Assembly (NCBI GenBank): GCA_051530055.1
Contig: CM121341.1
Span: 2,718,151 to 2,782,150, forward strand
Direction of reading: 5' to 3'
Source of the DNA: Neoechinorhynchus agilis
Taxonomy: Eukaryota; Animalia; Acanthocephala
Length of the DNA: 64,000 bases
Shown here: one piece after another, positions 1,999-41,239 of the stretch
Layout: each line of letters starts with the position of its first letter
Numbering within the stretch: position 1 is the first letter of the stretch
Program-made: the position numbers and the translations under genes
The notes under the pieces: model-generated
Databases searched by the model: none
The model's input: only the letters and a program-made list of their open reading frames with translations
What the model was told of the DNA's origin: nothing

Positions 1999-4930
1999 AT
2001 GTCTTTTTGCGAACCTACTTCTTCCGGCATCGATGCTACGTCCGCCTCCAAGGTTTCCACAGGTTTGTGTAAGATCTGCTTAAAAAAAGTCAGAGTCACG
2101 AAATTGGGTCTCCTCCATGTTCACGGTCCCCGTTCTTCACGCTGCGAAGGGTCGGGCACGTCCCCTGAAGATATCAGCTCTTCCCCCCAAATTGTGAACT
2201 TGACTTTGATTCACAAAATCTTCCTCTAATTGTGAAGCTTTTTCGTGTCCTTCCCAATCACGTCCTCAAACGAATTCCTAAAGGCGCTCGGTACCAAGTA
2301 GGTTCCGCATTTGCGGACCTTTTAGATGAATGTGTCGTTAATAATAGCGCAATATCCTGGATGCGTTTGTTCGCCTTCCCTCGACTCGTATTATTCGCCG
2401 GTGAGTCCTCAGAGGAATCCTTGACATCAATGGCAAGTCCAGAGTCGTCAACTTCCCTGATAATTTCCTCGCTGTGCTCAAATCTGCCGAGGATCCAACA
2501 TCCCTTTCGACGAAATCTGAAGGTCCTCGTCGTTTTTCATCTAGACGCTTAGGAGAACGCGTATCGGCCAAGTTGTCCGACGGCGACATCCGTGGAGCCG
2601 TGCGCCTTCTCTCATCAACGGATACTTTTGCGGGGGACACAATTACCACTTTGAACGCTTTGCGGGAAAAACACCCACCTTCAGCCGTACCACCACTTCC
2701 TAGCTCACATTCCCCTTCACCGATAGATCTCAAACCGATAGATGTGGTCGAAATGAAAAGGGCCCTCTCCTCATTCGCCGGCGGTTCAAGTCACGGTCTA
2801 GACGGGCTCAGACCCCAACATCTAAAGGACTTAATCTCGGGGGGAGCGCATTGCGCTGCGGAAAAAGTCGCCAAGGCTTTGACCACTATAGTGAACCTCA
2901 TCGCTCGAGGCGACACGAATGCCACTGGAATACATTTCATGTTTTCGGCTTCCCTGTGTGCCCTTAATAAGAAGGACGGTGGGATTCGTCCCATAGCAAT
3001 CGGAACTACCCTTCGCCGTCTCACCGGAAAGATTCTGTCAAAAAGGGTCGCGGAAAAAGCAGGCCAGATCCTTAGGCCCGTCCAGCTCGGATGTTGCTCT
3101 CCTTGTGGAGCAGAGGCTATAGTCCACGCGCTGCGTTCTTTTATTAATTCTGGTAGGGGCGTTCAGGTAATCCTGAAGTGCGATTTCGCAAATGCCTTCA
3201 ACGCTATCGATCGAGGCATCTTAATCTCAGCAGTCGGAAACACTATTCCAGAGCTTCTCCCCTACTTTCAGTCAGCATATTGCTCTCACACCCCGCTCGT
3301 ATATAATAATGAACTAATCTGGTCTCAATCGGGTGTGCAGCAAGGGGACCCTCTGGGGCCTTTAGGTTTTGCTCTGACGACAAACAATCTGGCGCAATCT
3401 CTTCGATCACCATTCAACGCCTGGTATCTGGATGACGCTACTCTAGGAGGTTCCCCGTCTGAAGTCCTACAAGATATAACGGTTCTTTTAGAAGAATGTA
3501 AAAAAATTGGCCTCAAACTGAACCCAAGCAAGTGCGAAATTTTGGTTTTGAATTGTGGGGACGAGGAACGCGCACAAATTTTGAGAGAGTTTGAAAAGGC
3601 CGCACCTAATATCCGACTTATCTCCAAGTCCAGCTTAGAACTGCTGGGAAGCTGCGTTCTCGAGGAGAATATGCAGGCTGATATCAGGAAAATCAGACCT
3701 TCCATTGATATCATCTGATCAAGGGCCTCTGAACTTTTCCTCACGATGGTCTCTTCCTTTTAAAAAATTGCATCTTCATTCCACGCATCCTCCATAAACT
3801 GCGGTCAACCCCTTCCTTTCAATGTCAGCCCGAATTGAGAGAGATTGATGGTTCTTTAAGCGATGGTCTATGCAAGATCCTTAATATTAAGCTCCCCGAC
3901 ACTGGCTGGACCCAGGCATCTTTGCCCACAAGCCACGGAGGGATCGGTATTCGTGCCAGCTCAGCCATTGCGCTTCCAGCCTTTCTATCGTCTCTTAGTA
4001 GGTCCAAGCGCCTTTCCAGATTGATTTTGAAACATAATTTTGAGGAGGACATCAGCCTGGAGCCCGCTCTTCATCTTTGGATGTCCCTGTCTAACCTCGA
4101 CAAGATTCCAGACCTCCCGGAAAAACAGAAATCGTGGGACATTCCGTTAGTGGAGCGTGTTCACACCTCACTTTTTGACTCGCTCTCCGACGTGGATAGA
4201 ACGCGATTAACTGCAGTTTCCTGCAAAGAGTCCGGCGCCTGGTTGAAAGCTGTACCATCAGCAAATATCGGTTCGAGATTAGACGGCGAGGCTCTCAGAA
4301 TTGCAGTGTCCCTAAGGCTCGGGCTCCCGGTTTGTATCCCTCACACCTGCCGATGCGGGACGGAAGTCGACCCCTCGGGCAGGCACGGTTTAGCCTGTAA
4401 ACGCTCAAGTGGCCGTTTTGCTAGACACACCGAAATAAACGCATTGCTGAGCCGCGCTTTGAAAACGGCTAACTCTCCGAATATCCTCGAGCCTAGCAAC
4501 ATCTGCAGGATCGATGGCCGTAGGCCGGATGGAGTTACCGTTTTTCCTTGGAGCAGGGGCAGATGTCTAATATGGGACGCAACATGCGTCGACTCCCTTG
4601 CAGCCAGCAATCTGCGAGATGCATCCTCCGGGGCTGGGGGAGCCGCATCAGCAGCTGAGCTTCGTAAGGTTGCAAAATACGCCGATTTTACAAATTCTTA
4701 TCATTTTGTCCCCTTCGCAGTAGAAACCTTAGGAGCTTTCGGACGTGCGGCGAGGAGTTTTGTTCTCGAACTGGGGCATCGCCTGATCAACTCGACCAAT
4801 GACAGGAGGGCTCGCTCGTTCCTAGTACAGAACATATCCTTGGCTATCCAGCGAGGAAACGCAGCGAGTGTCTTGGGGACGGTGAAGGACAATTCAGAAT
4901 AATATAAGTTAACTTTTATAAAAAAAAATA
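1999..4930 (+). mobile_element. CRE-clade non-LTR retrotransposon, near full length, with 2-3 lesions (CRE copy 1)
   Basis: N-terminal Zn finger (CKIC...HVH) and KRIPKGAR; RT motifs GGIRPIAIG, DFANAFN, GVQQGDPLGP, WYLDD; C-terminal CRC...H...C knuckle and REL nuclease (RPDG, WDATC, FVPFAVETLG, IQRGNA). A-rich tail after the stop at 4902. Split over ORFs 1999-2229, 2232-2552, 2474-3718 and 3835-4902. Confidence 0.85.
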
Positions 4931-7662: not shown

Positions 7663-8118
7663 TCATACTGATTCTCGGTGGCCGTTTGCCATCACTTGAT
7701 TCTCCTGTTCGTAGATTCTTGAATTGTTCCGTTGAACTACTTCAGATACATTTCCATTTAGATGAGGACGCTGAATCCTTAATTCCTCGACAATTTGTTG
7801 TCGTCCTTTTGGTCGCCACAGTGGACCACTCGTAATGCTATCACTGATCGCCCAAAACGATTTCCTCGGTCTTCCTCGAACAGGAATTTTCCTGAATCTT
7901 CGACAAAAAGACAGTGTATTCCTGATTGCTCCTTTCCATGACTTGCTATCTGTCCCTTGTTTGAAATATGGGAAATTCTCCTGAATCCATACGTAGATTT
8001 CATTGACCCGCAATCTTCCGGTCAAACTGTTCTCGATCGCTGCTTCTATTAAATCCGCATAACTTGCGTGGTCCCATTCGCTGATTGCGCCGTTAACTAT
8101 TTCTGCAGGGGAATGCAT
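7663..8118 (-). CDS. 151-aa forkhead-domain protein, FoxO-like, copy 1
   Basis: SYADLIEAAIENS...IYVWIQENFPYFKQGTDSKSWKGAIRNTLSF...KSFW aligns with the FoxO winged helix (SYADLITKAIESS...[24 protein letters not shown]). ATG start, intronless. Confidence 0.85.
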   Translation of the reverse strand: MHSPAEIVNGAISEWDHASYADLIEAAIENSLTGRLRVNEIYVWIQENFPYFKQGTDSKSWKGAIRNTLSFCRRFRKIPVRGRPRKSFWAISDSITSGPLWRPKGRQQIVEELRIQRPHLNGNVSEVVQRNNSRIYEQENQVMANGHRESV

Positions 8119-9179
8119 TTGATCGGGGTCAGAACAACACCAAGAGAGAGTTCACTTTGAACATATCCGAATCGTTCGGCTTTATCCGTAAATCGCTGTG
8201 AACAAACAATGGTAAATAAATGGACAAATATTTATCAGCATCGAGGTTGGTGTTTTAGATACCATTTTGTTGGAGTTCTTTGCTTTGTTGACTTAAAATG
8301 TGCTTATTAAACTTCGTTTCTTGGCAGATCGCCGAAGATCAACTGATTAATCAGCGTTCTAACTTTTTTGGCATTAAATAATGATTCTTATTAATCGATT
8401 ATTTAATCAAATCAATATTTAATTTTGTGTTTATTATCGGTCTCGGTCAATGGATGCGCCGGCGCTTCGTTAAGATTATAAAAATTGACGAAGGAAAGGA
8501 CAACAAGTAAATAAAACTTTTCGAAGTGTTCTTTTCTTAATCGCGTTTTTATTGCTCTTTCTGTCTCCACAAAATTTTGGATCGATTTTAGGTGCCATTT
8601 TCAACGATAAACATTCTTTTATTGTGTGCTCGCTGCTGTGAAGGAAATCAATATATTCGATGAAAGGTATTCAAAATCAATTTTATATAATACTTTTCTA
8701 AAAAATCTTTCTCCTAAAAAACTTTTAAGAGTCATTGGTATAGTAAAGAATTAAAAATTGTCTTATGCTTTGTTTTGTGATATAAGAAAAACCGCATCGA
8801 AGGTAAAGCCGCAAAATTCAGGTCGAAATAATTTTTGGGCCTTTAAACTATAGCGACCAATAACTGAATTCCGATTGTGTTTTCTTGTCTGTTGTATCAA
8901 ATAATCAATATACTAAAATGCTTATTAAATCTTAATTTATAACAATAAAAACAACGGCATTCTTTTGGTCTTTTGATCTTAAGCAGAATTAGTGCTTAAA
9001 AAGTTTGTTAATTCATTGAATTTAAGTTTTAAATTCTCCTAAGAACGTCAATAAATCACTCTTTTTCTACATTTGAAGGAGGAATCAGGGTATCGACGAA
9101 CGGCAATTAGGAGCGCGGACCATGTTCTCGCAACTGAGTACACGCTAATCTCTCTCGCACTCAAGCACATTCAATCGTC

Positions 9180-9989
9180 TTAAGAATTCCTCATTCTGGG
9201 GCAATGAGCGATTCTGTGTCCATACTCCCCGCAATTATAACAATTTCCGCGAAAAAATCTCGGTGGTGATCCGTATCGATGTGGTAGTTGTTGCCTTGGC
9301 AGTCGCGTATTTCTGCGAGGTACGCTGGGATTCCCTCTTGTTCTCTGGCCATTTGCCGCCTGCCTTGGTGGTGGCGACGACGCTGGATGATTGACGTTTG
9401 CAGTGGTCCTACCGATTCCAACAACCGATGGATACTCTTCACCGCCCGAACCGTATGACCGATTAAGCTCTCCCTCAATTTGTGAATTTTGCGTTGGCGA
9501 TGCATACCGGGCACCCGATATATTCGATAAATTTTCCACCATTTCCCCAATTGATCTTAAGTCGTCGGATTCAAGATGCCGATTATATTCAAAATGTGAA
9601 GACGATTCACTAAACTCTCCATCGTCTTCATTCGATGAGTCCTCGTCCACTACTTGAAATAGTGCGAGAATATCTCTAGGAACTTGTCCTTCAGGATCTG
9701 CTGGTGACGACCTTGATCGTATACATAGTTCTCGTTCCCATTTTTGTTCAATGGATAAAGTTTCCAAGATGTGATCGATTGCATGGATGAGGCCGATGTT
9801 TCTCGCAAGGCATTTGATAGGAGATCGACAATTCGGGCAAGTTGCCGATATTTCCTGGATACTTCTGGTCACACACCAGTGGCAAAACGAGTGGCCGCAA
9901 GGTTGTACAACCACAGGAGAGATGAAATAGTTAGTACAAATCGGACATTCCAAGGAAGAAGCTATTTTATCCAAAACGCCTTTACTCAT
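9180..9989 (-). CDS. RING-finger (C3HC4, RNF8/CHFR-like) protein with C-terminal CCHC zinc knuckle, 269 aa
   Basis: CPIC...PCGHSFCHWC...CPNC followed by a helix (LIHAIDHILETLSIEQKWERE), and C-terminal CYNCGEYGHRIAHC. Likely start is the ATG at 9989 (MSKGV); the longer track ORF is read-through into CRE sequence. Confidence 0.8.
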   Translation of the reverse strand: MSKGVLDKIASSLECPICTNYFISPVVVQPCGHSFCHWCVTRSIQEISATCPNCRSPIKCLARNIGLIHAIDHILETLSIEQKWERELCIRSRSSPADPEGQVPRDILALFQVVDEDSSNEDDGEFSESSSHFEYNRHLESDDLRSIGEMVENLSNISGARYASPTQNSQIEGELNRSYGSGGEEYPSVVGIGRTTANVNHPASSPPPRQAANGQRTRGNPSVPRRNTRLPRQQLPHRYGSPPRFFRGNCYNCGEYGHRIAHCPRMRNS

Positions 9990-10162
9990 GCATGAACCCG
10001 AACAGCGCAAAAACTTACGAGCAATCGAAAAACTTACAATACCCCATACAAGCAATACAAAGATTGTGGAGTAATTGCAAACAATCATAAAGCAAATAAC
10101 AAAATATATCTTGATACCCGAGCAAACAAACGAAAAGGAGGAATTTGTGAACGAAACATTCA

Positions 10163-13082
10163 ATGACGTCTTTACCGAATCACAAGCACGGAAGAATAGT
10201 AACACACAGGTTTCTGAGCTCGGATCCCTCCATGGACCCGAGCAGTAAGGACTGTTCCAATTTGGCTGGTTGTATCGCTGCACAAGATGATGATGCACAC
10301 AAACCTACAGGACACTGTTCAGTATGCGGTCGTAAATTCGGATTGACCTCGATGGATTTAATTAGGAAACACGGTCCATTGAAAACGAGATGTCTTGGCT
10401 CTTCCACCTTCACCTCCACAATCCTTCAGTGGTGGTCAACCTGACTCAGTATCTCCAATCGTCTCCCTGATCGGCACCTTGCCACAAAACATATTAAAAA
10501 GGATCCCAAAAGGCGCGAGATACCAATGTGCGAGGTTCTATTCGACACTGCTCTCGAAGTGCGGCTCTGAGCCGATCAAAGCTAACTACTTGCGGTTATT
10601 CGCCTTTCCTCGAATAATCTTGAACACAAACCGCGACTCGGACAGTAATCTCACCTGTACGATCAAAAAGCGACTCACGGATTATGACAATTTATTTGGG
10701 ATAAGCTTGAGTAGATCTATGGAGTCGCCTTCAATCGAAGCTAAACGCCCAAAATGCTCAAACCAACGTTCTCTCCTTGCCAAGAGAGTCTCTGCAAAAC
10801 TGGTGCAGTTCGGTTGCTAAGTTCGACGGGCTCATTTGCTAGAAGTGATCAGTGCACACTTGATGCACTTAGGGGTAAACACCCCGTCGGCAATCCCCCT
10901 TCCTTACCTGAAGTCCCTACTGAGGCCAGTTTCCAATGCGATATCTCAGAGTTAAGAAAAGCAATCGCCTCCTTCCCGAACGGCTCTGGACATAGTCCCG
11001 ATGGTCTTCGCCCTCAACATTAGAAAGACATGCTCAGTTTAGGAGCAGCAGCTGCTGGATCAACTCTTGAAGCATCCCTAAGGGATTTCACGGAACAAAT
11101 CATCAACGGTATCCCACCTCCCGAGGCGACAAGCTTCCTCTTTTCAGCCACACTATGCGCCTTATCCAAAACGAATGGTGACATTCGTCCGATTGCTGTG
11201 GGATGTACAATACGACGTTTGGCTGCTAAATTATTGTCCAAAAGATTTTACGATGACGTTGGACGTCAACTCCGTCCCTATTGACTTGGGTGCTGCACTC
11301 CATGTGGAGCTGAATCGATCGTCCATGCGACAAGATCTTTCATCAGACAATCGAGCACATTGAACGCAGTGCTTAAGGTGGATTTCAGCAACGCCTTTAA
11401 TTCAGTCGATCGCTCGGCCCTACTGAAAACAGTTGCTGTTAGCCCTCCTGGAGCATATCGTTATTTTCAGATCGCATATGGCACCAAGACCCCTTTATTC
11501 TTCGACCACCACACCATTTGGTCAGAAACCGGTGTACAACAGGGAGATCATCTGAGTCCGATTGGGTTTGCTTTGATAACGAACGATATCATCCGGATGC
11601 TTAACTCAAAACTAAACGTGTGGTATCTAGACGACGCGACAATTGGTGGAGATCCGGCAGTAGTCCTAGATGATTTGAAGAGGCTGATCATCGCCACATC
11701 GAAAATCGGATTAACTGTGAACTCGTCGAAATGTGAGCTAATGCTAATCAATGCAAACCAATCGGATAGAGATGCAATTTACAGCTCCTTTCTTGATATC
11801 GCTCCGGGAATACGACTCATTGAACGGGATCGTTTCTCTCTTCTTGGTAGCTGTGTCCTTAGTTCGAACGTTGAGAGGGAAATCGATGAAGTATTGCCTG
11901 ATTTGGAACGCTTGTGCAGTCGAACATGTGAGCTTGGCTCTCATGAAGCCCTATTCCTTTTGAGGAATTGTTTATGCATGCCAAAAATGCTGTATAAGTT
12001 AAGAGCGGCCCCATACTTCGAGCACTAACATAAGCTTCGACAGATTGATTCAATGCTGAGGAGACAACTACAACGCATCACGAACTCCCAGCTTTCAAAT
12101 GAGGCATGGCAACAAGCAATACTGCTTATAGAATACGGTGGATTGGGCCTTCGGAGCGTAGTCGAATTAGCACTTCCAGCTTTCCTCGCATCGGTCACCA
12201 AAACAAAAAATATAACCAATGTTATATTGCAGCAGACCGATATCTCGACGGATGATGTCGAACGTCGTGGAGTTTCCTCGTGGCTCATCAAGACCGATCT
12301 TGATCAAGTTCCAGAAAATGGTCACAAACAGCCTGTTTGGGATAAACCCTCGTAGAGAGAGCCTATAATTCCTTGAAAGGGCATCTCGACTCGGTGCCTC
12401 AAACACGGCTAGTGACGAGCTCTTCTAAGGAGTCTGGAGCTTGGTTAAATGCGCTGCCAATCAGACCTTTAGGCACACACCTTGACGACGAGTCGGTGAG
12501 GGTGGCTGTCGGGTTGAGGCTTGGCATACCTCTATGCATACCCCACAAATGTCGATGTGGTTCAGTAGTTGAAGAGTCAGGTAGACATGGCCTTCAGGAC
12601 GCTCCACTCAAACCGAACCACCTGTGTCGCTCAGATGGCAAACGTCCCGATGGGATGACCATATTCCCGTGGAAAGAGGGAAATGCCTTATCTGGGACGC
12701 CACATGCGTCGATTCGTTAGCACCCTCCAACCGAAGTGATGCAATATCAGGACCGGGAGGAGCTGCGACGGCGGCCGAAAGGAGGAAGACAGCGAAATAC
12801 GCTGAGCTGGAAAAGACTCACCTATTCCTTCCTTTCGGTGTGGAGACAAATGGGGCGTTTGGAGTTTCGGCAAAGAAATTTTGCGCGGAGATAGGCCGAC
12901 TACTCATAAAAGCCAGCGGAGATCACAGACAAAGGAACTACCTCATCCAACGCTTGGGTGTGGCTATTCAACGGGGCAACACGGCGAGCGTGATAACAAC
13001 GGCCCAATGGAGTTGCGCGGAATGAGGGATATAATGAAAACTAAAAGATTGAATTATAATAAAAATTGGGATAAGAAAAAAA
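10163..13082 (+). mobile_element. CRE-clade non-LTR retrotransposon, degenerate (CRE copy 2)
   Basis: CSVCGRKF Zn finger, KRIPKGAR, DIRPIAVG, DFSNAFN, GVQQGD, WYLDD, CRCG...H, RPDG, ETNG, IQRGN. Many stops and frameshifts; A-rich end near 13080. Confidence 0.85.
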
Positions 13083-13640
13083 AATTAACCAACCAAAATC
13101 AAATAAACCAAAATCAACCGACATACCAAAAACAATTTCTACCAACCATTGGCCATAGTCAACTTACCTAAGAAAAAATTCTTCGGACCTCTCAACGAAT
13201 CCTAACGTAGTCCGAAATCAATCTATTGCAACATTGGGTAGTTCATGAGGACTCCTTCTGCGAACTTCGAGTGCTCACGAGGACCCAAAGATACACGGAT
13301 CCTTTTCTTTGTTAATTATCAAATTTAGTTGGCTTCAGGATTAAAATTTGAAGCAACTAATAGCCGATATATTGATCGAAATTACGGTTGGGATTCACAA
13401 CAAGAAAATGTCTGTTATCAAACGCGGCCAGCAGCGTAAACTAAAGAGAAATTCGAAAAGTAATAAAAGTCGTTTGGGAAATAAGCTAAAATCTAAATAG
13501 ATCAAAGTACGCCCGAGCTCGTTTAAAATCATTCGGAAAAAGAGCTCAGAGACGCGGTTTTCAAATTTTCGAAACAAAGTGCGCTGTGGATTCAACGCTT
13601 AGAGCGAAAAACCGTGTTAAAACGAAGCGCGCTTGCTCTG

Positions 13641-14510
13641 ATGGACTACATCGAGGCGTAAACTTTTTGAGATTTATACAACGAAGTTGAAGAGTCAAAA
13701 TCTGTCAAGTTTGCACCAAAAAATGACGATCGACGTTAAAAAATTATAAGCGCGTTTCTTTCGTTTTTTCATGGTTTTTCGCTTTCAGCGTCGAATCGAC
13801 GGCGCACGTTGTTTCGGAATTTTGGAGATGCGTCTTCGTGCTCTTCTCGTGAATGATTTCAAACGAGCTCGGGCTAATCGATTTCTCAAGCTAAGGATGT
13901 AAGTAAATTCATAAAAGTTCAATTGGATTTTCACTAACGTTTTGATGATTCTCCTTAACTGAGCGGATATTAACGCTTAATATTTTTAATTTTATAATTT
14001 TTCAGAATTACGATACTTTATGAACGAGAAGTCCTTTTGACATTGCAATCGTGGACCATTTGGACTTTGGCTTATAATAGCAGACTTTTTCTTGTTGTAA
14101 TGAATCTCAACTGTAATTTCGGTTACTATCGCAGCGCTTAGTTGCTCCAAATTTTAATCCTAAATCAACCTTAAGTTACACATTAAACCTTGGATCAAAT
14201 GTTGATAGCCAAACTTCAGCATTCGCCGATCCAAGTTGATTCAACTGCCGGCGATTTATAAATCCCGCACCTCGAAGACCGGAAAATAAGCTTTGCTCAT
14301 CGCTAAGATACTGATCAAGGCGGGACATTCAAACGTAACTGAATTCCCTTGAAAGCTTTCTAATGCAACAGCAGTATTTTGCAATATTCCCCATGGTATC
14401 AACAAACTTTGCATCGTTCGTCTTTATTATACAGACCAATTGAAACTGGTCCCTTATTTGCGGGAACTTGAAATGATGTCAGAATTAAAAGCAGGCCTGC
14501 CATGGACTGC
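13641..14510. repeat. Duplicated block D, second copy 35161-36030
   Basis: Near-identical over about 870 bp. In the 36 kb copy it is joined by deletion to sequence matching 14737-14760. Confidence 0.95.
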
Positions 14511-14769
14511 TTTCAAAGGTATCTGTATGACCAATGGTAATTTTGGCGCCGCCTGTATCACCGACCAGCTGAAACTAGTTGATTCCCCATGAAAACGAAG
14601 TTTTTAAAATGTTGAATCTTAGAAGACAACCTCAAATGTGCCCAAAATGTTAATTTCAAGAAATTTAACATCCATTGTCCTTAATTAAATCTATGCTTGC
14701 ATTCAAGGATTTCCTTCCTTGTCGTTAGTTTTTTCCTCCAACTTTTAGGCTTCCATGATAACAACAACA

Positions 14770-15270
14770 ATTTATTCGGAAAGGCGTACCAAAAATCCTA
14801 CGCTGTCACATTAGCTTTGGCAAATTATAGGCCTATCCACTGGTTGGATTGTTTGACCCGGTCAGTTAAGAGAATGCACTCAAAGGGCAGTCTTGACAGA
14901 ATATTCAAGAATACACAACGGAATTTCAGGCGTTGTTCTAGGGCCTTCCTCTGGAATAAGACTTGGCCTGATATGGCCCAACAGCACTATGTGACTTTGG
15001 ATATCTTGTCGCTAAGCCCAATTCGAGCGGCGCAACTGGCTTTAGCTCTGGCTGTTATCAAAAGTTTTTTCATTTTAGTTATATCGGAGGCGGACGAGAG
15101 GTTATTTTTGATAGTATAACCCAGGCAAAAATTATAATGGATTTTTCTTGAGCGCTGTCATGGTTTTCTGCCAGGGAAATCTGTGCATACGGCGATTGCC
15201 CAAATAATAGCTAATTTTTTCAATTACCCAATGTCAACTAACATTCTTATAGCTTTCGACATTTAAAAAT
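14770..15270 (+). mobile_element. APE-RT LINE family X, RT-region fragment
   Basis: ERCHGFLPGKSVHTAIAQIIANFFNYPMSTNILIAFDI matches 32820-32950 (RCHGFLPERSVHTAFKEILDNF) and 44570-44670. Confidence 0.75.
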
Positions 15271-15299
15271 TTAGTCTTCTTCGCACGTGCTCGCACATA

Positions 15300-15880
15300 A
15301 TTAGATTCTTTGATGACCACTGAAAGGTCGTCGGCTTAAATAGTTATGCCACGGCAAATCGGCAGTTCGAGCAGTACCGTTTCCCTTTGTCGCATTTGGT
15401 GCTGTAGTGGTCCTAACCCCAATATGCGCATATCATAACTTTAGAAGGGCACTTTTTCTCCCAATGACCCCAACATTGGCACAAACTGCAACAAGGGGAA
15501 TTTTAGTCGTCGAGATGTGATATCTCGTTTGTGGCGAACTTAATCTCCATGGATTTAAAAAACACCGTTCATTGCATAGCGCGTTCCTCCATTCGACCGC
15601 AGTTTTGACTATCGCCTAGGGGATAAATTTACCTCTTCTCGTCGATTAGAGGAAAAAAAATAGCTTGACGCCGAATTTGTCATCAAAGGCCTTGTCCGAA
15701 TCATCGATGTCTGGGGAGAGACCGGCGACCATGAAGGTCCCATCCAAGGTCGCAATTTTTCTTGACGAAAGCTTGGTAAGCCTTCGCATTATCCGCTGCA
15801 ATAAATATGATCTTTAATTTTTCTCCGTAATAGATGATGGACCATACCCGATGAAAGACTGTAGTGACAGCAACTACAGC
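15300..15880 (-). mobile_element. APE-RT LINE family X, ORF1 fragment with three CCHC knuckles
   Basis: IIYYGEKLKI and, in a shifted frame, FMVAGLSPDIDDSDKAFDDKFGVKLF match the ORF1s at 38929-39567 and 42103-42381. Followed by CSLCQCWGHWEKKC, CAYxGxDHYSTKC and CSNC. Confidence 0.75.
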
Positions 15881-16867
15881 TACATTGCTCTGGCTCATTG
15901 GCGCTGTCAAATCCAGATACTGATCGAGGTCAGTTCTTGTAAAACTTGACCGGAACTGCGAAAATAGACTTTCGATCGAAACATCTTCTAAATTCAAGTT
16001 CAAAGTAACGCCCCATCCGTCATGGCGGGAGCATCCGAATAAGGTCATGACTTCGACAATTGCTTGCTTGTCTTTCGTACGAATGGGTGGAATCTGAAGA
16101 AAGTCAGGTACATTTCCCATTTCCACATTGTTTACTGTCGCCGGTAAATCTGGTAACTTAGCGCGAACTCTCGACAGAATAGCTGTATGTAACTGGTCCA
16201 ACGTCGAGTGTTGGTAACATGCGCTTATCATTCCCAACATTAGTGGGTCGTTTACCATAGTTTAGGATACCTTTCTAACCTCAATGTTGTGGCATTATCT
16301 CGATAGAGCCACTCAATATTAACCGGTTTTTGTTTCTTGACAATAACATAATCATTCGTTTTGACGGGTCTCAGTGCCGAGATCATTGAATACACGTTTG
16401 GAGTAGCGATTTTCGACGTTTTCGACTAAACCGTGTTCATTCTCGGAAACTGTCTGGACGTAAAGTCCGATTGCAAGCGATTCGATTATTCTGGCAGCAG
16501 GAAGGTTCACTGCTGAATTGTCGATTCCGTTTGGCGCAATGTAAGGGAGGAAGGTAGGCGCACCGGACAGATAATCGAGACTGACATATGTTGCACCGAA
16601 GCGTTCAATGACCGATAGCTCTCTACTGGTATTTTCAAGCTTCTTTGAAATGGAGTGGGTGGCTTTTTTACTGACATTTAATGCTTGAATGTTTTGTGAC
16701 GTTCTGCTAAGTACTCTTCGTCGGAAACTGCTTCTTGCTCGTCCTGGAGATGGACCGTAATATTCTGGAGGTCCGAATGAACTTTTGTATTCATCGCTAT
16801 TTAGGACTTGAGCATTTCTCATCTCACGATAGTTGTCTTGCAGTAACTGGCGCTTTTCATTAACCAT
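15880..16867 (-). pseudogene. Unidentified intronless coding remnant (about 330 codons, two frameshifts) fused to LINE X ORF1
   Basis: ORFs 16352-16867 and 15701-16258 are bridged by an open frame (KTNDYVIVKKQKPVNIEWLYRDNATTLRLERYPKL). No recognised domain. Confidence 0.4.
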
Positions 16868-17039
16868 GTTGTAATGAAAAGAAAGTAGTCAATCAATATG
16901 TGTAGGAGCACAATATAACTGATGACTGGTTACAAATTGGTTAGAGCGAAGCTCTTCTCTGGGTTGTACAGGATTCGCTTGAATCGTTATCATATTGAGC
17001 CATCTTTTAGAAGACACCTCCACGAAATGCTTAGTTTAT

Positions 17040-20010
17040 TAGATATAAACATGTTTTATTTATGTAAGAAATGCACGATCCACACACTTGCCAGCATCTA
17101 TCTTTGCTGAAGGTGTCTGGATGTCGGATGTTGACGGCAAGGGAGGTGGGACTTGTTTTTGAAGGTGTGTTAATGTGCGATCCGAGGCTTTGTACAGGAG
17201 ATGACCCATTGGGAGTCTTTCTTTGTGGTCGAAGTAAATTGTGGAGGGGGTTCAAGAAGACGTAGGGCGTTTTTGGAGAAAATGGAGTGGAGGTGGGCGT
17301 CGAGGGGAGGGGAGTGAAGTCCCGCATATTTTAGCTGCTCTCTTGTGGAAGGTTGGCCTTCCGCAATAATAAAAGTAACAATTTCTTAAGAGGTTTTGAT
17401 GTATTCCAATTGAGTCCACTATACTTCCTCTGCGCATCATTAGAGTTTCGACGGTTGGTGATAACTGGCAGATATGATCTGACTCCGGCCTGAAGACTAC
17501 TGTTAGACTTTGATGTGTAACAGATCTTTCCCGTGCAAGACGCATCTCTTTCCCAAGGAATGATTATAACCCCATGCTCTAAGTCGTATGGTAGTCTAAT
17601 ATCAGTTGATTTTATTGATTCAGTGATGTTTTCCTTTGTTCTCATGTAAGCACAATCAGGCTCCGGCCATGATTTGTCATAAATATTGGGGTCTACTCTC
17701 CCATTTATAAGTTCAAACACTTCCCTGAGAATACTCTCTGTGGATTAGATTGATATGATATCGTCTTAATTTCTAATAAATTTACCTTACATGTGGTTGT
17801 CAGTGTGAACTTCTTGATAACTTTCGCATTTTCAGAATGGATACAAAAGCCTTTGGCATACATTGAAACATTCACATATCCACCGTCTATTCGGCCTTTT
17901 GTAATTCTAGGTTGACCTCCGAAACAACTAATCATAGATGGGGGATAATAGCCCATGGCTCGATGATGTCGGTAGGGATAAAAACTCTTGTGATAGCCAT
18001 GGTAGATGAAAACATTGCAATTAAAACCAGGCAAGACAAATTCATTGATGCGAGGAAAGTGGGGAAAGCTTATGTGAGGATAGGAAGGATGGCAGAAAGA
18101 TAAAAGTGGGCAAGGTGTTTAGGGGATACGCCGAGACGCCGGAGGAGTTTGAGAAGGTAAAGACGATGGTTTGTTTTAGAGAGTGTAAATGAAATGTGGG
18201 CATCCCATTTAAGGTTTTCTTGTAAAATCACGCCCAGAATTCGGAGAGAAGAGGAGCGTTGGATGGGGATAGGGAGAGGTTTGGAAATGTGGGGGACAAG
18301 CTCAAAAGATTTGGATAAATTTAGGGAGAGGTTTAGGGTGGAGGGCGAGGAAATGAGATGGTTGAGCTCGTCCATGGTAGTGGAGAGGGAGAGAGACGGA
18401 GATGCGATGATAATGACTGTGAGGTCATCTGCATAAAGAAAATTTTTGATAGAGGGAGCGAGGGGGTGGAAGTCATTTAGAAAAATGTCAAAGGGAGAAG
18501 GGAAAGTACGGTGCCTTGGGGAACCCCTTTAAATATGGGCAGAGGAGGAACAAGAAGTTCCATATTGGATATATTGTTCGCGGTTGGAGAGGAAAGAGGA
18601 AATCCAAGCGAGTTGCCAGGTTTGGAGGCCAAATGAAGCACATGATTGGAAGAGAAGGGAGTAATCGACAGACTCGAACGCCCTGGAAATATCCAGTTGC
18701 ACGAGACGGACGGTTCATGCTGCTTTTTGTCAGTGTGGAGTGGAGGGAGGGGTAAGCAGGATTACCTGACCGGAAAGCTTTGGTGACCTGCATTTGAAGG
18801 GTTTTTAGAAAAGGCGAGAACCATGGAGGGTCGCGGTTCGAGATTCGTATTGTTTTGCGAGGAAAGGAGGCCTTCATCGCAGATTCTATTAGATTTGACA
18901 AAAAGCCCGTCGCAATCGAGGAGTCGGTGCCAAAGATGGTAGAGCGGTCTTGTGTGATAAGAGAATCGACACATACAGCAAAGGCGTGGGTATGATGATA
19001 ACGTTTACCCAGACCACGTAGGGATCGGAAAAGGAACGTTTTTGAGGTAATGAGGGGGAGAGAAGGATAGAACAATGGTCAGACAAGGCGATCGGGGGAG
19101 TTTGGTGGTGTAGGAGTATTGCCTGATGTTTGAGAAAATTTTATCAGGGCGGGAGGAGAAGCGTGTGGGGAAAGTAACGATTTGGGAGAGATGAGAGAGC
19201 GAGGGCGTGATCGGCAGTTTGTTAAAATCGCCCAATATGATGAAGTGATCTGAGGAAGTGGAAAGTATGTCAGTAAATAGGTGGTCTATTTGTTGAAGTC
19301 TGTTGGGGATGATTGAGGATGGAGGGCGATAAAGGCCAGCAATGGAGATCTCACGTTGGCCATTGCGGAGGGGGAGATGAAGTTGGATGTGTTGCCATTC
19401 AAGATCGTCTGAGATGAAAAGGTAGGTGAACAGCAATGGTATGGGAGAGAGGCGCGGATGAAGATCGATATGCCTCCCCCGTTTCGGAAGTCCTTCGTGA
19501 GGTGAAAAGCTTGAAAGTTTGGAAGGAAGGCAGATAATTTGCTATGGGGTGAGAGTCATGTTTCCGTAATTACAAGGATGTCGGCGTTGCAAGAAGAGGC
19601 AACTACATGGAGCTCATCCAGTTTGGGGAGGAGGCTGCGGATGCTACAATAAAAGATTATTGGAAAGGGATGTTTAGAAGGGACAGGAGGAATGGACACT
19701 GACGGAGAGGGTTGAAGCTGCGCAGTGAGAGAAGGGATGGGAGTTGACTGATGGGGTAGTTCGGGGGCTAATGGATTCGCGGGTAATGGATTCGTGGGTG
19801 GACACTGTAGTAAGGGGTGATTTGAGTGTAGAGACCATAGGGGTGGGAACTGTGCATGCGGGATGAACTCGGGGGGAAGGAGGATATTGGGAGTTGAAGA
19901 GGTGGTGGTAAGAGGTGAGGTAGTGTGAGCATCCAAGGTATTTTTCTGAGAAAGTGACTCCGGATGTCAGGAGGCACAGGGATTCACAGGACATTGGATG
20001 GCCGTATGCC
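17040..20010 (-). mobile_element. L2/CR1-like LINE (APE + RT, degenerate), interrupted at 17354-18045
   Basis: APE motifs SIRSLLPKLDEL...VITET, GLYRPP, ILGDFN, SDH; RT thumb LRILGVILQENLKWDAHI...YLLKLLRRLG...ILPILTxAFPTFLAS; resumes with FHKRAAKICGTSLPS after the insert. Confidence 0.85.
17354..18045 (-). pseudogene. Endogenous viral element: N-terminal ~230 codons of a rhabdovirus-like glycoprotein (G), three frameshifts
   Basis: Reconstructed: MNLSCLVLIAMFSSTMA (signal peptide)-ITRVFIPTDIIEPWAIIPPSMISC...TLTTTCKVNLLEIKTISY...GKC...SWPEPDCAYM...YDLEHGVIIIPWERDASCTGKICYT/HQSLTV...HIC...RNCYFYYCGRP. The Cys spacing follows the vesiculovirus G pattern (W..VP....CP; TTC; FPPQSCGY; DEYTG..C....C.T; ACKMQYC). 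Confidence 0.8.
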
Positions 20011-20013
20011 ATG

Positions 20014-20560
20014 AATCTTTAACCGGGATTATATTCAAAAACCATTCAATTTATGAGCTTAAGCCGTAAGACTGCCAAAGCTCGGAAACAATGAAGAGTT
20101 TTTGAGCGTCTCTTTAGATATAGAAGAATATACGACGAGATATCAATATTAGATTTGATACAGAGCTATTGATGGACACGAATTAACATATTTAAAAACT
20201 TAGGGTAGGTTTCCTCTTTCGAAATATTTCATAATAAAGGAATCTTTAACCGGGATTATGTTAAAAAACCATTCAATTTATGAGCGTAAACCGTAGGGCG
20301 GCGAAAACTCGGAAATAAAGATGAATTTTTTGACCGATAAAGTCTTTTTTATTTGATGCAGAGCTGTTGATGAACCCGAACTCACATATTTAAAAATTTA
20401 CAAGAAATGATTGATGAGGCGAAGTTTCTTCTTTCGAAAAATTTCATACTAATAAAGGAATCTTTAACCGGGTGATTATGTTCACAAACCATTCAATATT
20501 TACCATACCGAAGGATTCAAGACAACTAAACAAATCCCGAAAAAGCCGTAAAGCGGCGAA
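20014..20560 (+). repeat. Degenerate tandem repeat (~225 bp, about 2.5 units) related to Penelope pseudo-LTR / hammerhead motif
   Basis: aatctttaaccggg at about 20014, 20241 and 20459. The third unit is preceded by TTGATGAG-gc-GAAG-ttt-CTTC-ttt-CGAAA at 20411-20439. Confidence 0.7.
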
Positions 20561-21061: not shown

Positions 21062-21572
21062 GTCCAAGATTATTGATAACTCTCAGGCCCGCTCGGTTCT
21101 CGAAACTGGTGACTTGACTAACGTCGCCATTTTCTATTTTGGTGCAAAAGACGATTTAAATATCGCCACTTCATTTCTTCATCACTTTATGGCCTTTATT
21201 GAGTGTTCAATCTCTTATTTTTGAGGTTAAAGATGACCCTTAGGCCCGCTCGGTTCTCGAAACTGATGACTCGCTAACGTCGCCATTTTCTATTTTGGAG
21301 CAAAAGACGATTTAAATATTGCCACTTCATTTCTTCATCACTTTATGGCCTTCATTTAATGTTCAATCTCCTGTTTTTGAAATTAATGATAACTCTCAGG
21401 CCCGCTCGGTTCTCGAAACTGGTGACTCGGCTAATGTCGTCATTTTCTATTTTGGTGCAAAAGACAATTTTAATATCGCCACTTCATTTTATTATCACTT
21501 TAAGGCATTGATTGAGCGTTCGATCTCTTTTTTTCAGATTAATGATTACTCCCAGACCCGCTCGATTCTCGA
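21062..21572 (+). repeat. 156-bp tandem repeat (about 3.2 units) overlapping the kinesin start codon
   Basis: gat(a/g/t)ac.c.cag(g/a)cccgctcg recurs at 21075, 21232, 21388 and 21544. Confidence 0.95.
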
Positions 21573-23785
21573 TCTTTTGTGGACTAAGGCCACTTCCGAA
21601 TGGAGAGACTCAATCGTGTTGCACCGTTATTTCTCCGGTCTGTGTGGCACTGCATGCGCCCAACGATGTCACAGCAAAGAAGCCGCCGAAAAAGGAAATC
21701 CTTGGTTCATTTCGGAACGTCTATAAACCCGAAGACTCACAGTCTCATCGATTCAAAGACCTTTGTATTCCACTGGTTGTAGGCTTTCTTCAAGGATCCA
21801 GCTCTCTTTTATTTGCTTATGGTGTAAGCGGATCCGGAAAGACGTACACAATGGTCGGCGCTGAAAGCGATCCGGGTATTATCCCAAGATGCCTTGATGT
21901 GATATTTAATAGCATCGGCGATCGATTGAACGAGCCGTACACTATCGTCTTTAACTCACATTCAGGAGAATTCATTCGACTGACAGACGCTGAACGTATG
22001 TTGGAGCGACAAAGGAGAGAGATTTTGCCATCCATCATGAATTCCGCTAAGACTCAGCCATCAACTACAGGTCAAGGTAACAGGATCCGTGATCCGAGCC
22101 GGTTTTTTTGTGCCGGTGGAATGGAGCAGAGTCGCTTCACCCTAATTGTTTCCTATGTCGAGGTATACAACAAAAACATTCATGATCTTCTGGACGATTC
22201 GGCGTGGAGTCATCGATTGGAAGGACAATTTAAAAAGGCTTTGAGACGAGACACTCAGGGGGATGTGTTTGTAGGTGAATGCACTCACGTCGAAGTTCGA
22301 TCTTCCGATGATGCCTACGAAGTGTTTATGAAAGGAAATCAGCGACGAAAACTGTCCGAGACGATGGCCAATAGTGGTTCCACTCGTGGACATGGAGTTT
22401 TCACGGTCCACCTCGTCCGTCTCGATGATCCCGCCTATAACCATGCCGATAGAACGACGGTTGCTATCATCAGTAAGCTTTGTCTTGTTGATCTTGCAGG
22501 ATGTGAACGTCAATGCAAAGCCAAAACTACAGGACATCGATTACAAGAAGCTGGACACATAAATACGAGCTTACTTGTTCTTAGAAAATGTATTGAAGTC
22601 ATGCGGACAAATCAGAAGCAATGCGATCAAAAGCTCGTGGTTCCATACAGGGACTCGAAACTCACAATGCTTCTAAAGTACTTCTTCGAAGGACACGGAC
22701 GTACTTTTATGCTTCTTTGCATGAATCCGTCCTGTCGCGATTACGAAGAAAATGTTAGAGCTCTACAATTCGCAGAAATCACTCAGGATCTTGAGAATGT
22801 GACTGCTTCGGGCGCAACAATTGCCAAGCATGTAAATATCAAGACAAAAGATGATCCGAAGATCAATGGTGAAATGGCACCTACATCTTCATCAAGCGAA
22901 GATACATACTCGGTAAGTCAAATGGGAAATTCCATAATCAAGCGAATGGACCAGAACCTGAGGGCGTATACAAAAATTATAGATAAACTGCACTTAATTG
23001 AGCCTGAATGGAAGGCGATGTCCAAAAAAGTAAATGTATTTAGTAGAAGATTGAAAGAAAAGGAGAAAGTGGAAGCTCGACTAGCAACAGAGAATCATGT
23101 CTTGCTCAATGAGAACAGAAATCTTAAAACTAGAATTGATGAATTGCTTGTTGATTTGGACGTTCATAAGCGAAAACAGGAGTTTGTAAGCCACGAAGAT
23201 GTCACTCGAATGTGCAATGCAAATGATACAACAACCACTACTACATACAGAACAGAATACATTGTGACTCCTTGGAACTTAGAAAGTGGGATCGACAGAA
23301 CCATTACACACACTCCAAAATCAATATCTCGAATACGTGGACTACATTACAGGCATCGCAGATCAAGTTCAGGCCATGAAACTTGGATAAATCATAAGCC
23401 ACGAGACATACAAATAAAAGACCAGATCCTGCAGCCGAGGTTTAATCGACGATCAAAATCACACGATGTTTGTTCATCCCGGATGCTGGACGACCTCACT
23501 GGTCCTCATGCAGCCAATCGATATGCATTGATACATCAAGAAAAAAGTGGACGAGGAGATTTGAAAACCGAAATTCTGAAGGCCGACGTGTATCCTACCA
23601 CTACAGGCGGTGCTAAAGTAGTCTTTAAGGAAGTAGAACGTGTTCAAAGCAGCCAAAGTCTGTCGCGAAAGCGTGTTTTTTTCGATTTGTACAAGGAAAC
23701 GGAGTCTGATGATCATGTGTTGAGCACTATCACAAATGACCCGAAGATTACAAGGACTACGGGGTATGGTCACAATTTCAAATAA
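21542..23785 (+). CDS. KIF23: Kinesin-6 (MKLP1/Pavarotti-like), intronless, 747 aa
   Basis: P-loop GVSGSGKT, kinesin-6 loop-6 insertion, NSGSTRGH, DLAGCER, VPYRDSKLT, coiled coil, and an MKLP1-type tail (HRRSSSG..W.NHKP...YALIHQE...TGGAKVVF). Confidence 0.9.
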   Translation: MITPRPARFSIFCGLRPLPNGETQSCCTVISPVCVALHAPNDVTAKKPPKKEILGSFRNVYKPEDSQSHRFKDLCIPLVVGFLQGSSSLLFAYGVSGSGKTYTMVGAESDPGIIPRCLDVIFNSIGDRLNEPYTIVFNSHSGEFIRLTDAERMLERQRREILPSIMNSAKTQPSTTGQGNRIRDPSRFFCAGGMEQSRFTLIVSYVEVYNKNIHDLLDDSAWSHRLEGQFKKALRRDTQGDVFVGECTHVEVRSSDDAYEVFMKGNQRRKLSETMANSGSTRGHGVFTVHLVRLDDPAYNHADRTTVAIISKLCLVDLAGCERQCKAKTTGHRLQEAGHINTSLLVLRKCIEVMRTNQKQCDQKLVVPYRDSKLTMLLKYFFEGHGRTFMLLCMNPSCRDYEENVRALQFAEITQDLENVTASGATIAKHVNIKTKDDPKINGEMAPTSSSSEDTYSVSQMGNSIIKRMDQNLRAYTKIIDKLHLIEPEWKAMSKKVNVFSRRLKEKEKVEARLATENHVLLNENRNLKTRIDELLVDLDVHKRKQEFVSHEDVTRMCNANDTTTTTTYRTEYIVTPWNLESGIDRTITHTPKSISRIRGLHYRHRRSSSGHETWINHKPRDIQIKDQILQPRFNRRSKSHDVCSSRMLDDLTGPHAANRYALIHQEKSGRGDLKTEILKADVYPTTTGGAKVVFKEVERVQSSQSLSRKRVFFDLYKETESDDHVLSTITNDPKITRTTGYGHNFK

Positions 23786-29301: not shown

Positions 29302-29757
29302 TCATACTGATTCTCGGTGGCCGTTTGCCATCACTTGATTCTCCTGTTCGTAGATTCTTGAATTGTTCCGTTGAACTACTTCAGATACATTTCCATTTAG
29401 ATGAGGACGCTGAATCCTTAATTCCTCGACAATTTGTTGTCGTCCTTTTGGTCGCCACAGTGGACCACTCGTAATGCTATCACTGATCGCCCAAAACGAT
29501 TTCCTCGGTCTTCCTCGAACAGGAATTTTCCTGAATCTTCGACAAAAAGACAGTGTATTCCTGATTGCTCCTTTCCATGACTTGCTATCTGTTCCTTGTT
29601 TGAAATATGGGAAATTCTCCTGAATCCATACGTAGATTTCATTGACCCGCAATCTTCCTGTCAAACTGTTCTCGATCGCTGCTTCTATTAAATCCGCATA
29701 ACTTGCGTGGTCCCATTCGCTGATTGCGCCGTTAACTATTTCTGCAGGGGAATGCAT
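29302..29757 (-). CDS. 151-aa forkhead-domain protein, FoxO-like, copy 2 (in duplicated block 28924-30193)
   Basis: Protein identical to copy 1; two synonymous nucleotide differences. Confidence 0.85.
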   Translation of the reverse strand: MHSPAEIVNGAISEWDHASYADLIEAAIENSLTGRLRVNEIYVWIQENFPYFKQGTDSKSWKGAIRNTLSFCRRFRKIPVRGRPRKSFWAISDSITSGPLWRPKGRQQIVEELRIQRPHLNGNVSEVVQRNNSRIYEQENQVMANGHRESV

Positions 29758-30193
29758 TTGATCGGGGTCAGAACAACACCAAGAGAGAGTTCACATTGAA
29801 CAGGTCCGAATCGTTTGGCTTTATCCGTAAATCGCTGTGAACAAATAATGGTAAATAAATGGACAAATATTTATCAGCATCGAGGTTGGTGTTTTGGATA
29901 CCATTTTGTTAGAGTTCTTTGCTTTGTTGACTTAAAATGTGCTTATTAAACTTCGTTTCTTGGCAGATCGCCGAAGATCAACTGATTAATCAGCGTTCTA
30001 ACTTTTTTGACATTAAATAATGATTCTTATTAATCGATTATTTAATAAAATCAATATTTAATTTTGTTTTTATTATCGGTCTCGGTCAATGGATGCGCCG
30101 GCGCCTCGTTAAGATTATAAAAGTGGACGAAGGAAAGGAGAACAAGTAAATAAAACTTTTCGAAGTGTTCTTTTCTTAATCGCTCTTTCAGTC

Positions 30194-34310: not shown

Positions 34311-36419
34311 TGTTGGACTACAACGATTTCAATGTCCAGCCATCCGCCCTAACAACGTTTTATAAAAGCCAAAATTATTATGTTAAAGCTTTAGATTGGT
34401 GTTCTAAGGCCACAGGAAACAATTAAATGGTTGAATTCCTTTCTTAACAATCGATTACAATTTATGGAAATAGGCAGCTTCGCCTCGAGCATCTTGGCAA
34501 TCAACATGGGTTCCCACTAAAGAAGAAATGGTCGCATACCAATGTTTTAGAAGTATAAAGTAAACCGAAAACGTACAAATTGGAAGTAAAAGCAGAAATC
34601 GTATAAAAAGGTAGAGGACCATAAAATTAAACGAATATGTGAAGAAGCGATCCCAAACCGCGATTAGAGCTCAGCTGAAACATCGCGTTTAAGTAGTGGG
34701 TTCATTAGAGTAGAGGATACTGTATCAAAACCAATTAATATTGAAGAAATAAGTGCTTTACCCGGAATTTTAGGATGTATTAAGAAAGTACTCCAGTCCT
34801 TAAGTCCCAGTTTGAATTGCCAATCTGGTGATCTCGTTTTATCCCTTACCCATTCGCTCTAACAGGTCACTACATCAGTCTACTTTGAAACTTTATCAAG
34901 CTTTTAGATGGAATTCGTATGGATGAGGTCGCCTAAGCCGAACGTCGGCTTCTTTGGTAACTCCTGATCTGGTCTGCGGAGGGAAAACCCCTGGCTTTCA
35001 GATGCCTAACAAAGAAGCTTCCTTTAATGAAAAGACCAACTCCAGCCTTTTATAATGCTGCAACGATGGCTCAGACAACTCTGAAACTATAAAAGTACCA
35101 GCAACCTGACAATGTACTCTGGCGTCCATCAAAGTTGCAAGGAGCGCTCCCGAAGATTAAATGGACTACATCGAGGCGTAAACTTTTTGAGATTTATACA
35201 ACGAAGTTGAAGAGTCAAAATCTGTCAGGTTTGCACCAAAAAATGACGATCGACGTATAAAAATTATAAGCGCGTTTCTTTCGTTTTTTCGTGGTTTTTC
35301 GCTTTCAGCGTCGAAACGACGGCGCACGTTGTTTCGGAATTTTGGAGATGCGTCTTCGTGCTCTTCTCGTGAATGATTTCAAACGAGCTCGGGCGAATCG
35401 GTTTCTCAAGCTAAAGATGTAAGTAAATTCATAAAAGTTCAATTGGATTTTCATTAACGTTTTGGTAATTCTCCTTAACTGAGCGGATATTAACGCTTAA
35501 TATTTTTAATTTTATAATTTTTCAGAATTACGATACTTTATGAACGAGAAGTCCTTTTGACATTGCAATCGTGGACCATTTGGACTTTGGCTTATAATAG
35601 CAGACTTTTTCTTGTTGTAATGAATCTCAACTGTAATTTCGGTTACTATCGCAGCGCTTAGTTGCTCCAAATTTTAATCCTAAATCAACCTTAAGTTACA
35701 CATTAAACCTTGGATCAAATGTTGATAGCCAAACTTCAGCATTCGCCGATCCAAGTTGATTCAACTGCTGGCGATTTATAAATCCCGCACCTCGAAGACC
35801 GGAAAATAAGCTTTGCTCATCGCTAAGATACTGATCAAGGCGGGACATTCAAACGTAACTGAATTCCCTTGAAAGCTTTCTAATGCAACAGCAGTATTTT
35901 GCAATATCCCCCATGGTATCAACAAACTTTGCAGCGTTCGTCTTTATTATACAGACCAATTGAAACTGGTCTCTTATTTGCGGGAACTTGAAATGATGTC
36001 AGAATTAAAAGCAGTCGTGCCATGGACTGCTTCCAACTTTTAGGCTTCCATGATAATGTTTTTCCCGTGCAACACCTTCGCTATTTAATCTCGATCGTCG
36101 AACGGCTTTCCAACGTCACTAGTGAACTCTAATCGACATCTTCAACTCGTTCACGCAAACGAGTGATTTTCCTCGTCCATTCTTTTTTCCCGATATAGGA
36201 AAGTTTTCGATTGACAACTGCGTTGCATCGTTCACACGAGATTTCATAAACGGCGTTTTTTTTAAGTTTTACTGGCAAGCCGGTATTGTTATCATCATTA
36301 AATTTTAGTCTATCCCTTTCTTGTCCGGCTTAGTTTTTAGGCATAAAGCCAAACAATAACATCAGAGAAGTGATATAACCACGTAGTCTCTAATGCACGG
36401 TTAAGAGTTTGTACATTCC

Positions 36420-40783: not shown

Positions 40784-41239
40784 TCATACTGATTCTCGGT
40801 GGCCGTTTGCCATCACTTGATTCTCCTGTTCGTAGATTCTTGAATTGTTCCGTTGAACTACTTCAGATACATTTCCATTTAGATGAGGACGCTGAATCCT
40901 TAATTCCTCGACAATTTGTTGTCGTCCTTTTGGTCGCCACAGTGGACCACTCGTAATGCTATCACTGATCGCCCAAAACGATTTCCTCGGTCTTCCTCGA
41001 ACAGGAATTTTCCTGAATCTTCGACAAAAAGACAGTGTATTCCTGATTGCTCCTTTCCATGACTTGCTATCTGTCCCTTGTTTGAAATATGGGAAATTCT
41101 CCTGAATCCATACGTAGATTTCATTGACCCGCAATCTTCCGGTCAAACTGTTCTCGATCGCTGCTTCTATTAAATCCGCATAACTTGCGTGGTCCCATTC
41201 GCTGATTGCGCCGTTAACTATTTCTGCAGGGGAATGCAT
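40784..41239 (-). CDS. 151-aa forkhead-domain protein, FoxO-like, copy 3 (in duplicated block 40406-41676)
   Basis: CDS appears identical to copy 1. Confidence 0.85.
   Translation of the reverse strand: MHSPAEIVNGAISEWDHASYADLIEAAIENSLTGRLRVNEIYVWIQENFPYFKQGTDSKSWKGAIRNTLSFCRRFRKIPVRGRPRKSFWAISDSITSGPLWRPKGRQQIVEELRIQRPHLNGNVSEVVQRNNSRIYEQENQVMANGHRESV

Follow-up and report, generated by a model that had tools for sequence, protein, structure and literature searches.

A rhabdovirus-type glycoprotein gene fragment inside a decayed LINE ORF2 of the acanthocephalan Neoechinorhynchus agilis and its possible capture by template switching

The window analysed is a stretch of 64,000 nucleotides (contig CM121341.1, positions 2,718,151 to 2,782,150) from GenBank assembly GCA_051530055.1 of Neoechinorhynchus agilis; PMC12690905 describes a 46.2-Mb assembly. 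The window contains a decayed LINE copy whose ORF2 is interrupted by a fragment related to the glycoprotein (G) gene of rhabdoviruses (the insert), and an intron of the opposite strand that ends inside this fragment (Table 1).

Table 1. Positions of the insert, the LINE arms, the junctions and the antisense splice within the window.
Feature	Position	Strand	Description
Viral insert	17355-18049	minus	695 nt, single copy; codes for the first ~230 residues of rhabdovirus-type G, with a putative signal peptide, the fusion domain and the beginning of the PH domain
LINE 5' arm	18050-19960 (5' end approximate)	minus	decayed ORF2: APE endonuclease from ~19655, then RT to ...AFPTFLA
LINE 3' arm	17045-17354 (end approximate)	minus	ORF2 C-terminus FHKRAAK..., 3' end with AATAAA
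5' junction microhomology	18043-18049	minus	7 letters, the last three being the G start codon, identical to a 7-mer of one LINE variant
3' junction	17351-17354	minus	3-4 LINE letters, likely also viral Pro-Thr codons (putative microhomology)
Upstream exon end	13871-13898	plus	GTAAGT donor next; edge of inverted repeat 13511-13874
Intron	13899-17910	plus	4012 nt, GT-AG
Downstream exon	17911-18106 (end not fixed)	plus	antisense to G and LINE; pyrimidine tract and TAG acceptor inside the insert

Six-frame translation resolved the insert into four minus-strand segments lying in three frames and running from an ATG at 18045 to the residues YCGRP. The segments are separated by three frame breaks (near 17944-17941, 17723-17708 and 17502-17497) and contain no in-frame stop, and the insert carries no poly(A). 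The first break is supported by the G profile only (see below). The paralogue P0002 has an uninterrupted frame over the other two, and it aligns in order to three of the insert segments. The LINE reads ...AFPTFLAS directly before the G ATG and continues with FHKRAAK after YCGRP, and the composition shifts at 18049-17355 from 36% C and 12% G in the LINE to 33% A and 19% C in the insert. LINE and virus may share the final letters of the LINE and the G ATG. A preliminary description made from the sequence alone had placed a G fragment inside a LINE ORF2 at 17354..18045. The fragment and its setting are borne out by six-frame translation, G profiles and bridging contigs, and the ATG at 18045 stands, while the limits of the insert had to be moved to 17355-18049.

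In run X8, at 88% likeness, reads covered the insert to a depth of 10-19 and the unique flank to one of 14-24. At 18058-19000 the depth rose to about 900-2400, which is about 60-160 times the single-copy level. This contrast indicates roughly 100 related LINE copies and an insert present in a single copy. The preliminary description had allowed that the junctions might be absent from reads; both are bridged, with 0 differences, by contigs from two studies, X1 (17314-18105) and X2 (17282-18106), and raw-read depth is continuous across the insert. The assembly may have been made from X1. A chromosome-scale contig together with this confirmation by reads excludes contamination.

The ORF2 of the LINE, which the preliminary description labelled L2/CR1 (a putative assignment), has an APE endonuclease followed by an RT, the domain order of that group. 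Its 5' arm shows several frameshifts, two stops and internal deletions (e.g. 18721/2). The Pfam families Exo_endo_phos_2 and RVT_1 match this arm at E 6.6e-4 and 7e-5, both below the gathering cut-offs, and tblastn with the ORF2 proteins P0003 and P0004, 2 relatives among 1675 candidates, gave 36% and 30% identity. The 3' arm was delimited by depth and by loose ends at 17043-17104 and is collinear, by eye, with the C-terminus of P0004. Relative to sister copies, internal deletions or replacements are seen at 18721/18722, 17226-17231 and 18222-18279, with hundreds of loose ends, and much of the RT N-terminus is missing from the window copy. Sister copies have a 100-nt tandem repeat near the 3' end (17165->17066, about 500 reads per run), and one LINE subfamily has a 500-nt deletion (18355->18856). 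LINE-coding DNA makes up 20-25% of the window.

Sequence searches of Pfam, NCBIfam and PDB returned no match for the G pieces or for P0002, fragments at most 20% identical to known G, and neither the insert pieces nor P0001 or P0002 matched Pfam Rhabdo_glycop above its cut-off. Since the library searches gave no match, rhabdovirus genomes were fetched and G profiles were built from 30 and then from 96 sequences. The four references tested against Rhabdo_glycop all match it; the references are of the alpha- and gamma-type only, and alignment A3 has 27 rows, 3 of the 30 G sequences having been omitted. When 1281 sequences were scored with the 30-sequence profile, the top three ranks went to P0002 and two insert ORFs. 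With the 96-sequence profile, the X-read of the insert reached 49.6 bits (best of 1000 shuffles, 5.4), and the unjoined insert ORFs gave E 3e-5 and 3.4e-3 (among 1281), the best unrelated ORF standing at 0.067. In the two profile tests 0 of 2000 and 0 of 1000 shuffles reached the G score of the insert; the first and last pieces taken alone were not significant (150 and 16 of 2000 shuffles). The top 39 ranked matches of the X-read among 586 viral ORFs were all G, and HHalign of the insert with G spanned 181 columns with a probability of 96.8 and an E of 2.1e-10. The check that the preliminary description had proposed, repair of the frames and a profile match to G, gave a positive result with the profile and HHalign, while Pfam and PDB sequence searches stayed without match. 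A flavivirus polyprotein match (E 0.26) was taken as chance.

Identity between the insert and the 30 G proteins is 9.5-20%. The hydrophobic N-terminus aligns from profile position 1, and seven of the ten cysteines conserved in the N-terminal half of G (reference position <=240) align directly, with two more in HHalign. The tenth belongs to the GFC motif of the fusion domain (~17840-17815), which lies 9 residues earlier than in the 30 references; the shift looks like 27 nt added between the GFC and the TTC motif. G72, G118 and H148, invariant in G, are unmatched in the alignment. At the positions that we take to be the fusion loops, loop 1 has L-L where the references have W-Y and loop 2 retains its Tyr. 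The C-terminal half of G is lacking. As judged by these comparisons, the assignment of the insert to rhabdovirus-type G is well supported at that level, and the low identity supports a source virus from an undescribed, very distant lineage, in keeping with what the preliminary description had suggested.

A search of 1.84 billion proteins with the insert protein gave two matches, the protein of the window itself and P0002 (KAL7675704.1), which comes from the same N. agilis assembly, is 48% identical to the insert and has conserved cysteines. P0002 is a frame-open G fragment of 198 residues, annotated as hypothetical and located outside the window; its single-sequence AlphaFold model (pLDDT 34.6) had no usable fold. 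A word-based protein search found a match in none of the 371 longer candidates and, among 183, only in P0001 and P0002, and no relatives of P0002 were found in viral contigs. P0002 probably represents an independent capture from a related virus.

Rhabdovirus N or L had no match within the 64-kb window. On the minus strand at 15350-16888, two single-copy ORFs (178 and 186 aa) are followed by decayed CCHC zinc knuckles (~15350-15480), and this region, with motifs assigned by eye, is probably a patchwork of decayed pieces of retroelements. The possibility of another viral gene next to the insert, at 15701-16888, was considered and rejected, with no match to rhabdovirus N/L profiles, 233 viral ORFs, Pfam, NCBIfam or PDB. 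Elsewhere in the window, a forkhead-like ORF occurs in three near-identical copies (7663-8151, 29302-29790 and 40784-41272) in duplicated blocks that are 97-98% identical, and two long uninterrupted host ORFs encode a KIF23/MKLP1-like kinesin (21512-23785, by Pfam) and a CLPB-like AAA protein (55491-56747, by eye). Another non-LTR family is represented by three copies (2405-4902, 10802-13025 and 49977-52383), one of them near intact, with a C-terminal restriction-like endonuclease motif seen by eye. A minus-strand ORF at 9180-10304 has a C-terminal CCHC knuckle and a RING finger, the latter matching a rad18-like NCBIfam entry at E 1e-10, well short of its cut-off.

The sister copies allowed both junctions to be mapped, as the preliminary description had proposed. 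Reads that join 17354 to 18050 with 30 letters between them numbered 415 in X8 and 496 in X6 (one sample); they represent sister copies without the insert, which shows that the insert replaced LINE sequence. The collinear resumption of the LINE in the same orientation, with about 10 codons missing, had been described correctly: the sister copies carry 30 letters at the insert site. At the 5' junction the microhomology was seen directly. The commonest LINE variant in X8 shares a 6-mer with this junction, positioned 7 letters into the replaced 30, and a match of this kind occurred in 0 of 1880 30-nt stretches of the LINE arm (analytic chance 0.001-0.005). We read this junction as start-codon microhomology: the switch itself would have cost the LINE 16 letters, and a further 7 are missing immediately upstream of it. 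Overall the insert stands in place of 16-30 letters of ORF2. At the 3' junction the LINE variants read E-T-F-H and P0002 carries Pro-Thr where the window passes into LINE sequence; from this paralogue, at 48% identity, we infer that 3-4 letters were shared. No fitting direct repeat was found at the insert edges as a target site duplication (TSD), and none of at least 8 letters around the whole LINE, where the longest direct repeat was 7 nt (16880-17090 against 19850-20100; the copy is old and its 5' end uncertain). Both junctions are in frame with ORF2, for which the chance is 1 in 9. Selection as the cause was set aside, the 5' frame being dependent on the 7-nt loss. The transcript start precedes the G start codon by no more than a few bases in many of the viruses compared, which makes it probable that the insert extends close to the 5' end of the mRNA.

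Rhabdoviruses have no DNA stage, and for this reason an RNA origin of the insert is very likely. We tentatively favour the reading, to which we give slightly less than an even chance, that the insert arose when the LINE RT moved over from the LINE RNA to a viral G mRNA and then returned. After about 310 nt of the LINE 3' end had been copied, the end of the cDNA would have annealed to the middle of the viral mRNA through 3-4 matching letters, and the RT would have extended it by ~690 nt, as far as the start codon close to the 5' end of that mRNA. Through 6-7 matching letters the cDNA would then have annealed once more to the LINE RNA, still close by in an RNA:cDNA hybrid, re-entering it ~16 nt upstream of the exit, after which copying would have continued for ~1.9 kb. 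The loss of 7 nt beside the 5' junction may belong to the same event or to later decay; other internal deletions in the window copy indicate that small losses are common there. The copy would later have decayed as a pseudogene and may now supply a splice acceptor to an antisense transcript.

Template switching would explain the place, the orientation and the similar decay of the insert. A sense orientation inside ORF2 would be met by random capture in ~1 in 8-10 cases (half of the 20-25% cover). The first codon of the insert is the G start codon, at profile position 1, and its 3 breaks in 695 nt resemble the LINE arms (ratio 0.8-1.2 from hand counts of 5-8 breaks, 95% range 0.13-5.6). None of the 5 listed joints skips the insert (98% likeness; 918 and 882 reads from one sample, for an estimated ~4 reads per run if heterozygous). 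Double switches by LINE RT are documented in passages of PMC2104539, where a TSD around the whole chimera is given as the criterion for proving tripartite chimeras. Against switching, every junction feature fits break repair equally well, as far as the account in PMC1920257 goes, the comparison of ages is weak, and with decay of 3-8% one would expect 1.2-3.1 stops in the 227 codons, where there are 0, a slight pointer to a younger insert. The preliminary description had inferred a double template switch, of which the locus would be a direct record. The junctions are real, the orientation is shared and the switch is plausible; no TSD was found around the LINE, and capture at a break predicts the same features.

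A later patch is a serious possibility, which we hold to be only a little less likely than switching. In this reading a double-strand break opened in a LINE copy already in place, and viral G mRNA, or cDNA that some retroelement RT had made from it, closed the gap with microhomology and a small deletion, as in the NCLI type. The missing TSD and poly(A), the 3' truncation, the target deletion and the microhomology are among the NCLI marks listed in passages of PMC1920257, where 18 of 21 NCLI loci have target deletions, and insect EVEs are described in part of PMC2987831 as generally having neither TSD nor poly(A). The share of LINE-coding DNA in the window and the zero stops of the insert also fit a patch, the near-exact resumption of the LINE would need no special step, and break captures are probably commoner events than switching. 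On the other hand, a patch must land in LINE ORF2 in sense orientation (about 0.1), the frame-break densities of insert and LINE are similar, and no empty allele was seen, an observation of low power.

It is unlikely that the donor was an earlier endogenous copy, or an env-like G of another retroelement, moved by DNA-level copying or as a transcript. The presence of P0002 as a second G-like sequence in the same assembly would fit such a donor, as would the class III fusogens carried by some LTR elements, which according to passages of PMC13524379 are gB-type rather than rhabdovirus G. However, the depth of the insert at 88% likeness is that of a single copy, its start at the start codon speaks against such a donor, and the 48% identity and conserved cysteines of P0002 are as expected of divergence within a virus lineage. 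An assembly chimera or a chance resemblance to G is extremely improbable, since the missing Pfam, NCBIfam and PDB sequence matches for the pieces and P0002 and the unmatched G72, G118 and H148 are outweighed by the bridging contigs of two studies, the continuous raw-read depth, the shuffles, the E values of the unjoined ORFs and HHalign, and both were ruled out by the bridging reads and the 96-sequence G profile.

Like NIRVS and rhabdo-like EVEs (rhabdovirus-derived endogenous viral elements), which occur as more than one insertion per genome, the insert is a decayed fragment of a negative-strand virus gene in a germline, free of TSD and poly(A). Invertebrate NIRVS include G-derived ones in ticks and mosquitoes (passages of PMC2987831). 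For the acanthocephalan Pomphorhynchus laevis, passages of PMC12548735 report 18 Mononegavirales-like RdRp sequences near cytorhabdoviruses; these are RdRp, whereas here an acanthocephalan carries a G, and the lineage of this G shares at most 20% identity with the G proteins tested. A further difference is that both breakpoints of the insert are resolved against about 100 empty LINE copies. The LCMV-IAP recombinant cDNA that Geuking reportedly described in 2009 is said to have arisen when a retroelement RT switched onto the RNA of a negative-strand virus; it reportedly involved an LTR element in somatic cells, in contrast to a non-LTR element in a germline here.

LINE chimeric retrogenes (U6-L1 and WEIRD/Mg-SINE/MGL), as described in passages of PMC2104539, likewise show one orientation, direct joins, a LINE 3' part and foreign RNA copied to its 5' end. 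In the tripartite chimeras of the same passages the 3' end of the middle piece is preserved and the RT finally moves to a different RNA, whereas here the middle is viral, was entered internally and is followed by a return to the same LINE, and flanking direct repeats were not found. The endonuclease-independent L1 insertions of PMC1920257, as far as its passages describe them, share with the insert the lack of TSD and tail, the 3' truncation, the short deletion and the microhomology; the insert differs in having a virus as the source of the captured RNA and the ORF2 of a LINE, in sense orientation, as the target. RNA-virus coding sequence also lies within LINE ORFs in TRAS/Jockey elements with viral SF1 helicase domains (passages of PMC5563155), but those domains are of positive-strand origin, intact, amplified and expressed, while the insert is single copy and broken and interrupts ORF2. 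No LINE-virus-LINE chimera and no G-derived EVE of an acanthocephalan appeared in the literature searched, which comprised titles, abstract starts and passages, including PMC9241645; most subscription papers lie outside it, and EVEs or repeats of this species may appear in the supplements to PMC12548735 and PMC12690905.

An X3 contig leaves the window at 17911 with 28 loose letters that match 13871-13898 exactly and differ at three positions from the paralogous repeat at 35391. Its depth is 20.5 over 17911-18106, compared with 3.1 over 17479-17940. The splice was seen in one of three possible-RNA runs (X3), X2 being unbroken there and X4 without cover, and the contigs show neither strand nor level. 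Five molecules of one DNA run likewise end at 17911. The donor at 13898 is supplied by an imperfect, MITE-like inverted repeat (13511-13874) in a duplicated block (13641-14516, copy at 35161-36036). The canonical plus-strand intron makes it likely that the 139 nt at the 5' end of the insert and the adjoining LINE are transcribed antisense, and such a splice suggests that the fossil is possibly used by RNA silencing.

Taken in full, the account would be that a non-LTR RT left its own RNA, copied the mRNA of a negative-strand virus to the start codon and returned to the same LINE RNA, leaving a fossil of an undescribed rhabdovirus-like lineage of acanthocephalans that is now part of a spliced antisense RNA and could feed virus- or LINE-directed small RNAs; we consider it doubtful that all of these parts hold together. 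How RNA-virus fragments that have neither tail nor TSD enter invertebrate germlines is usually guessed, the pre-insertion state being lost. Here that state can be read base by base from the ~100 sister LINE copies, which makes switching versus break repair testable. Within the searches made, the insert and P0002 are the first evidence from a G gene for rhabdovirus-like viruses of thorny-headed worms, and they provide a probe for such viruses in transcriptomes.
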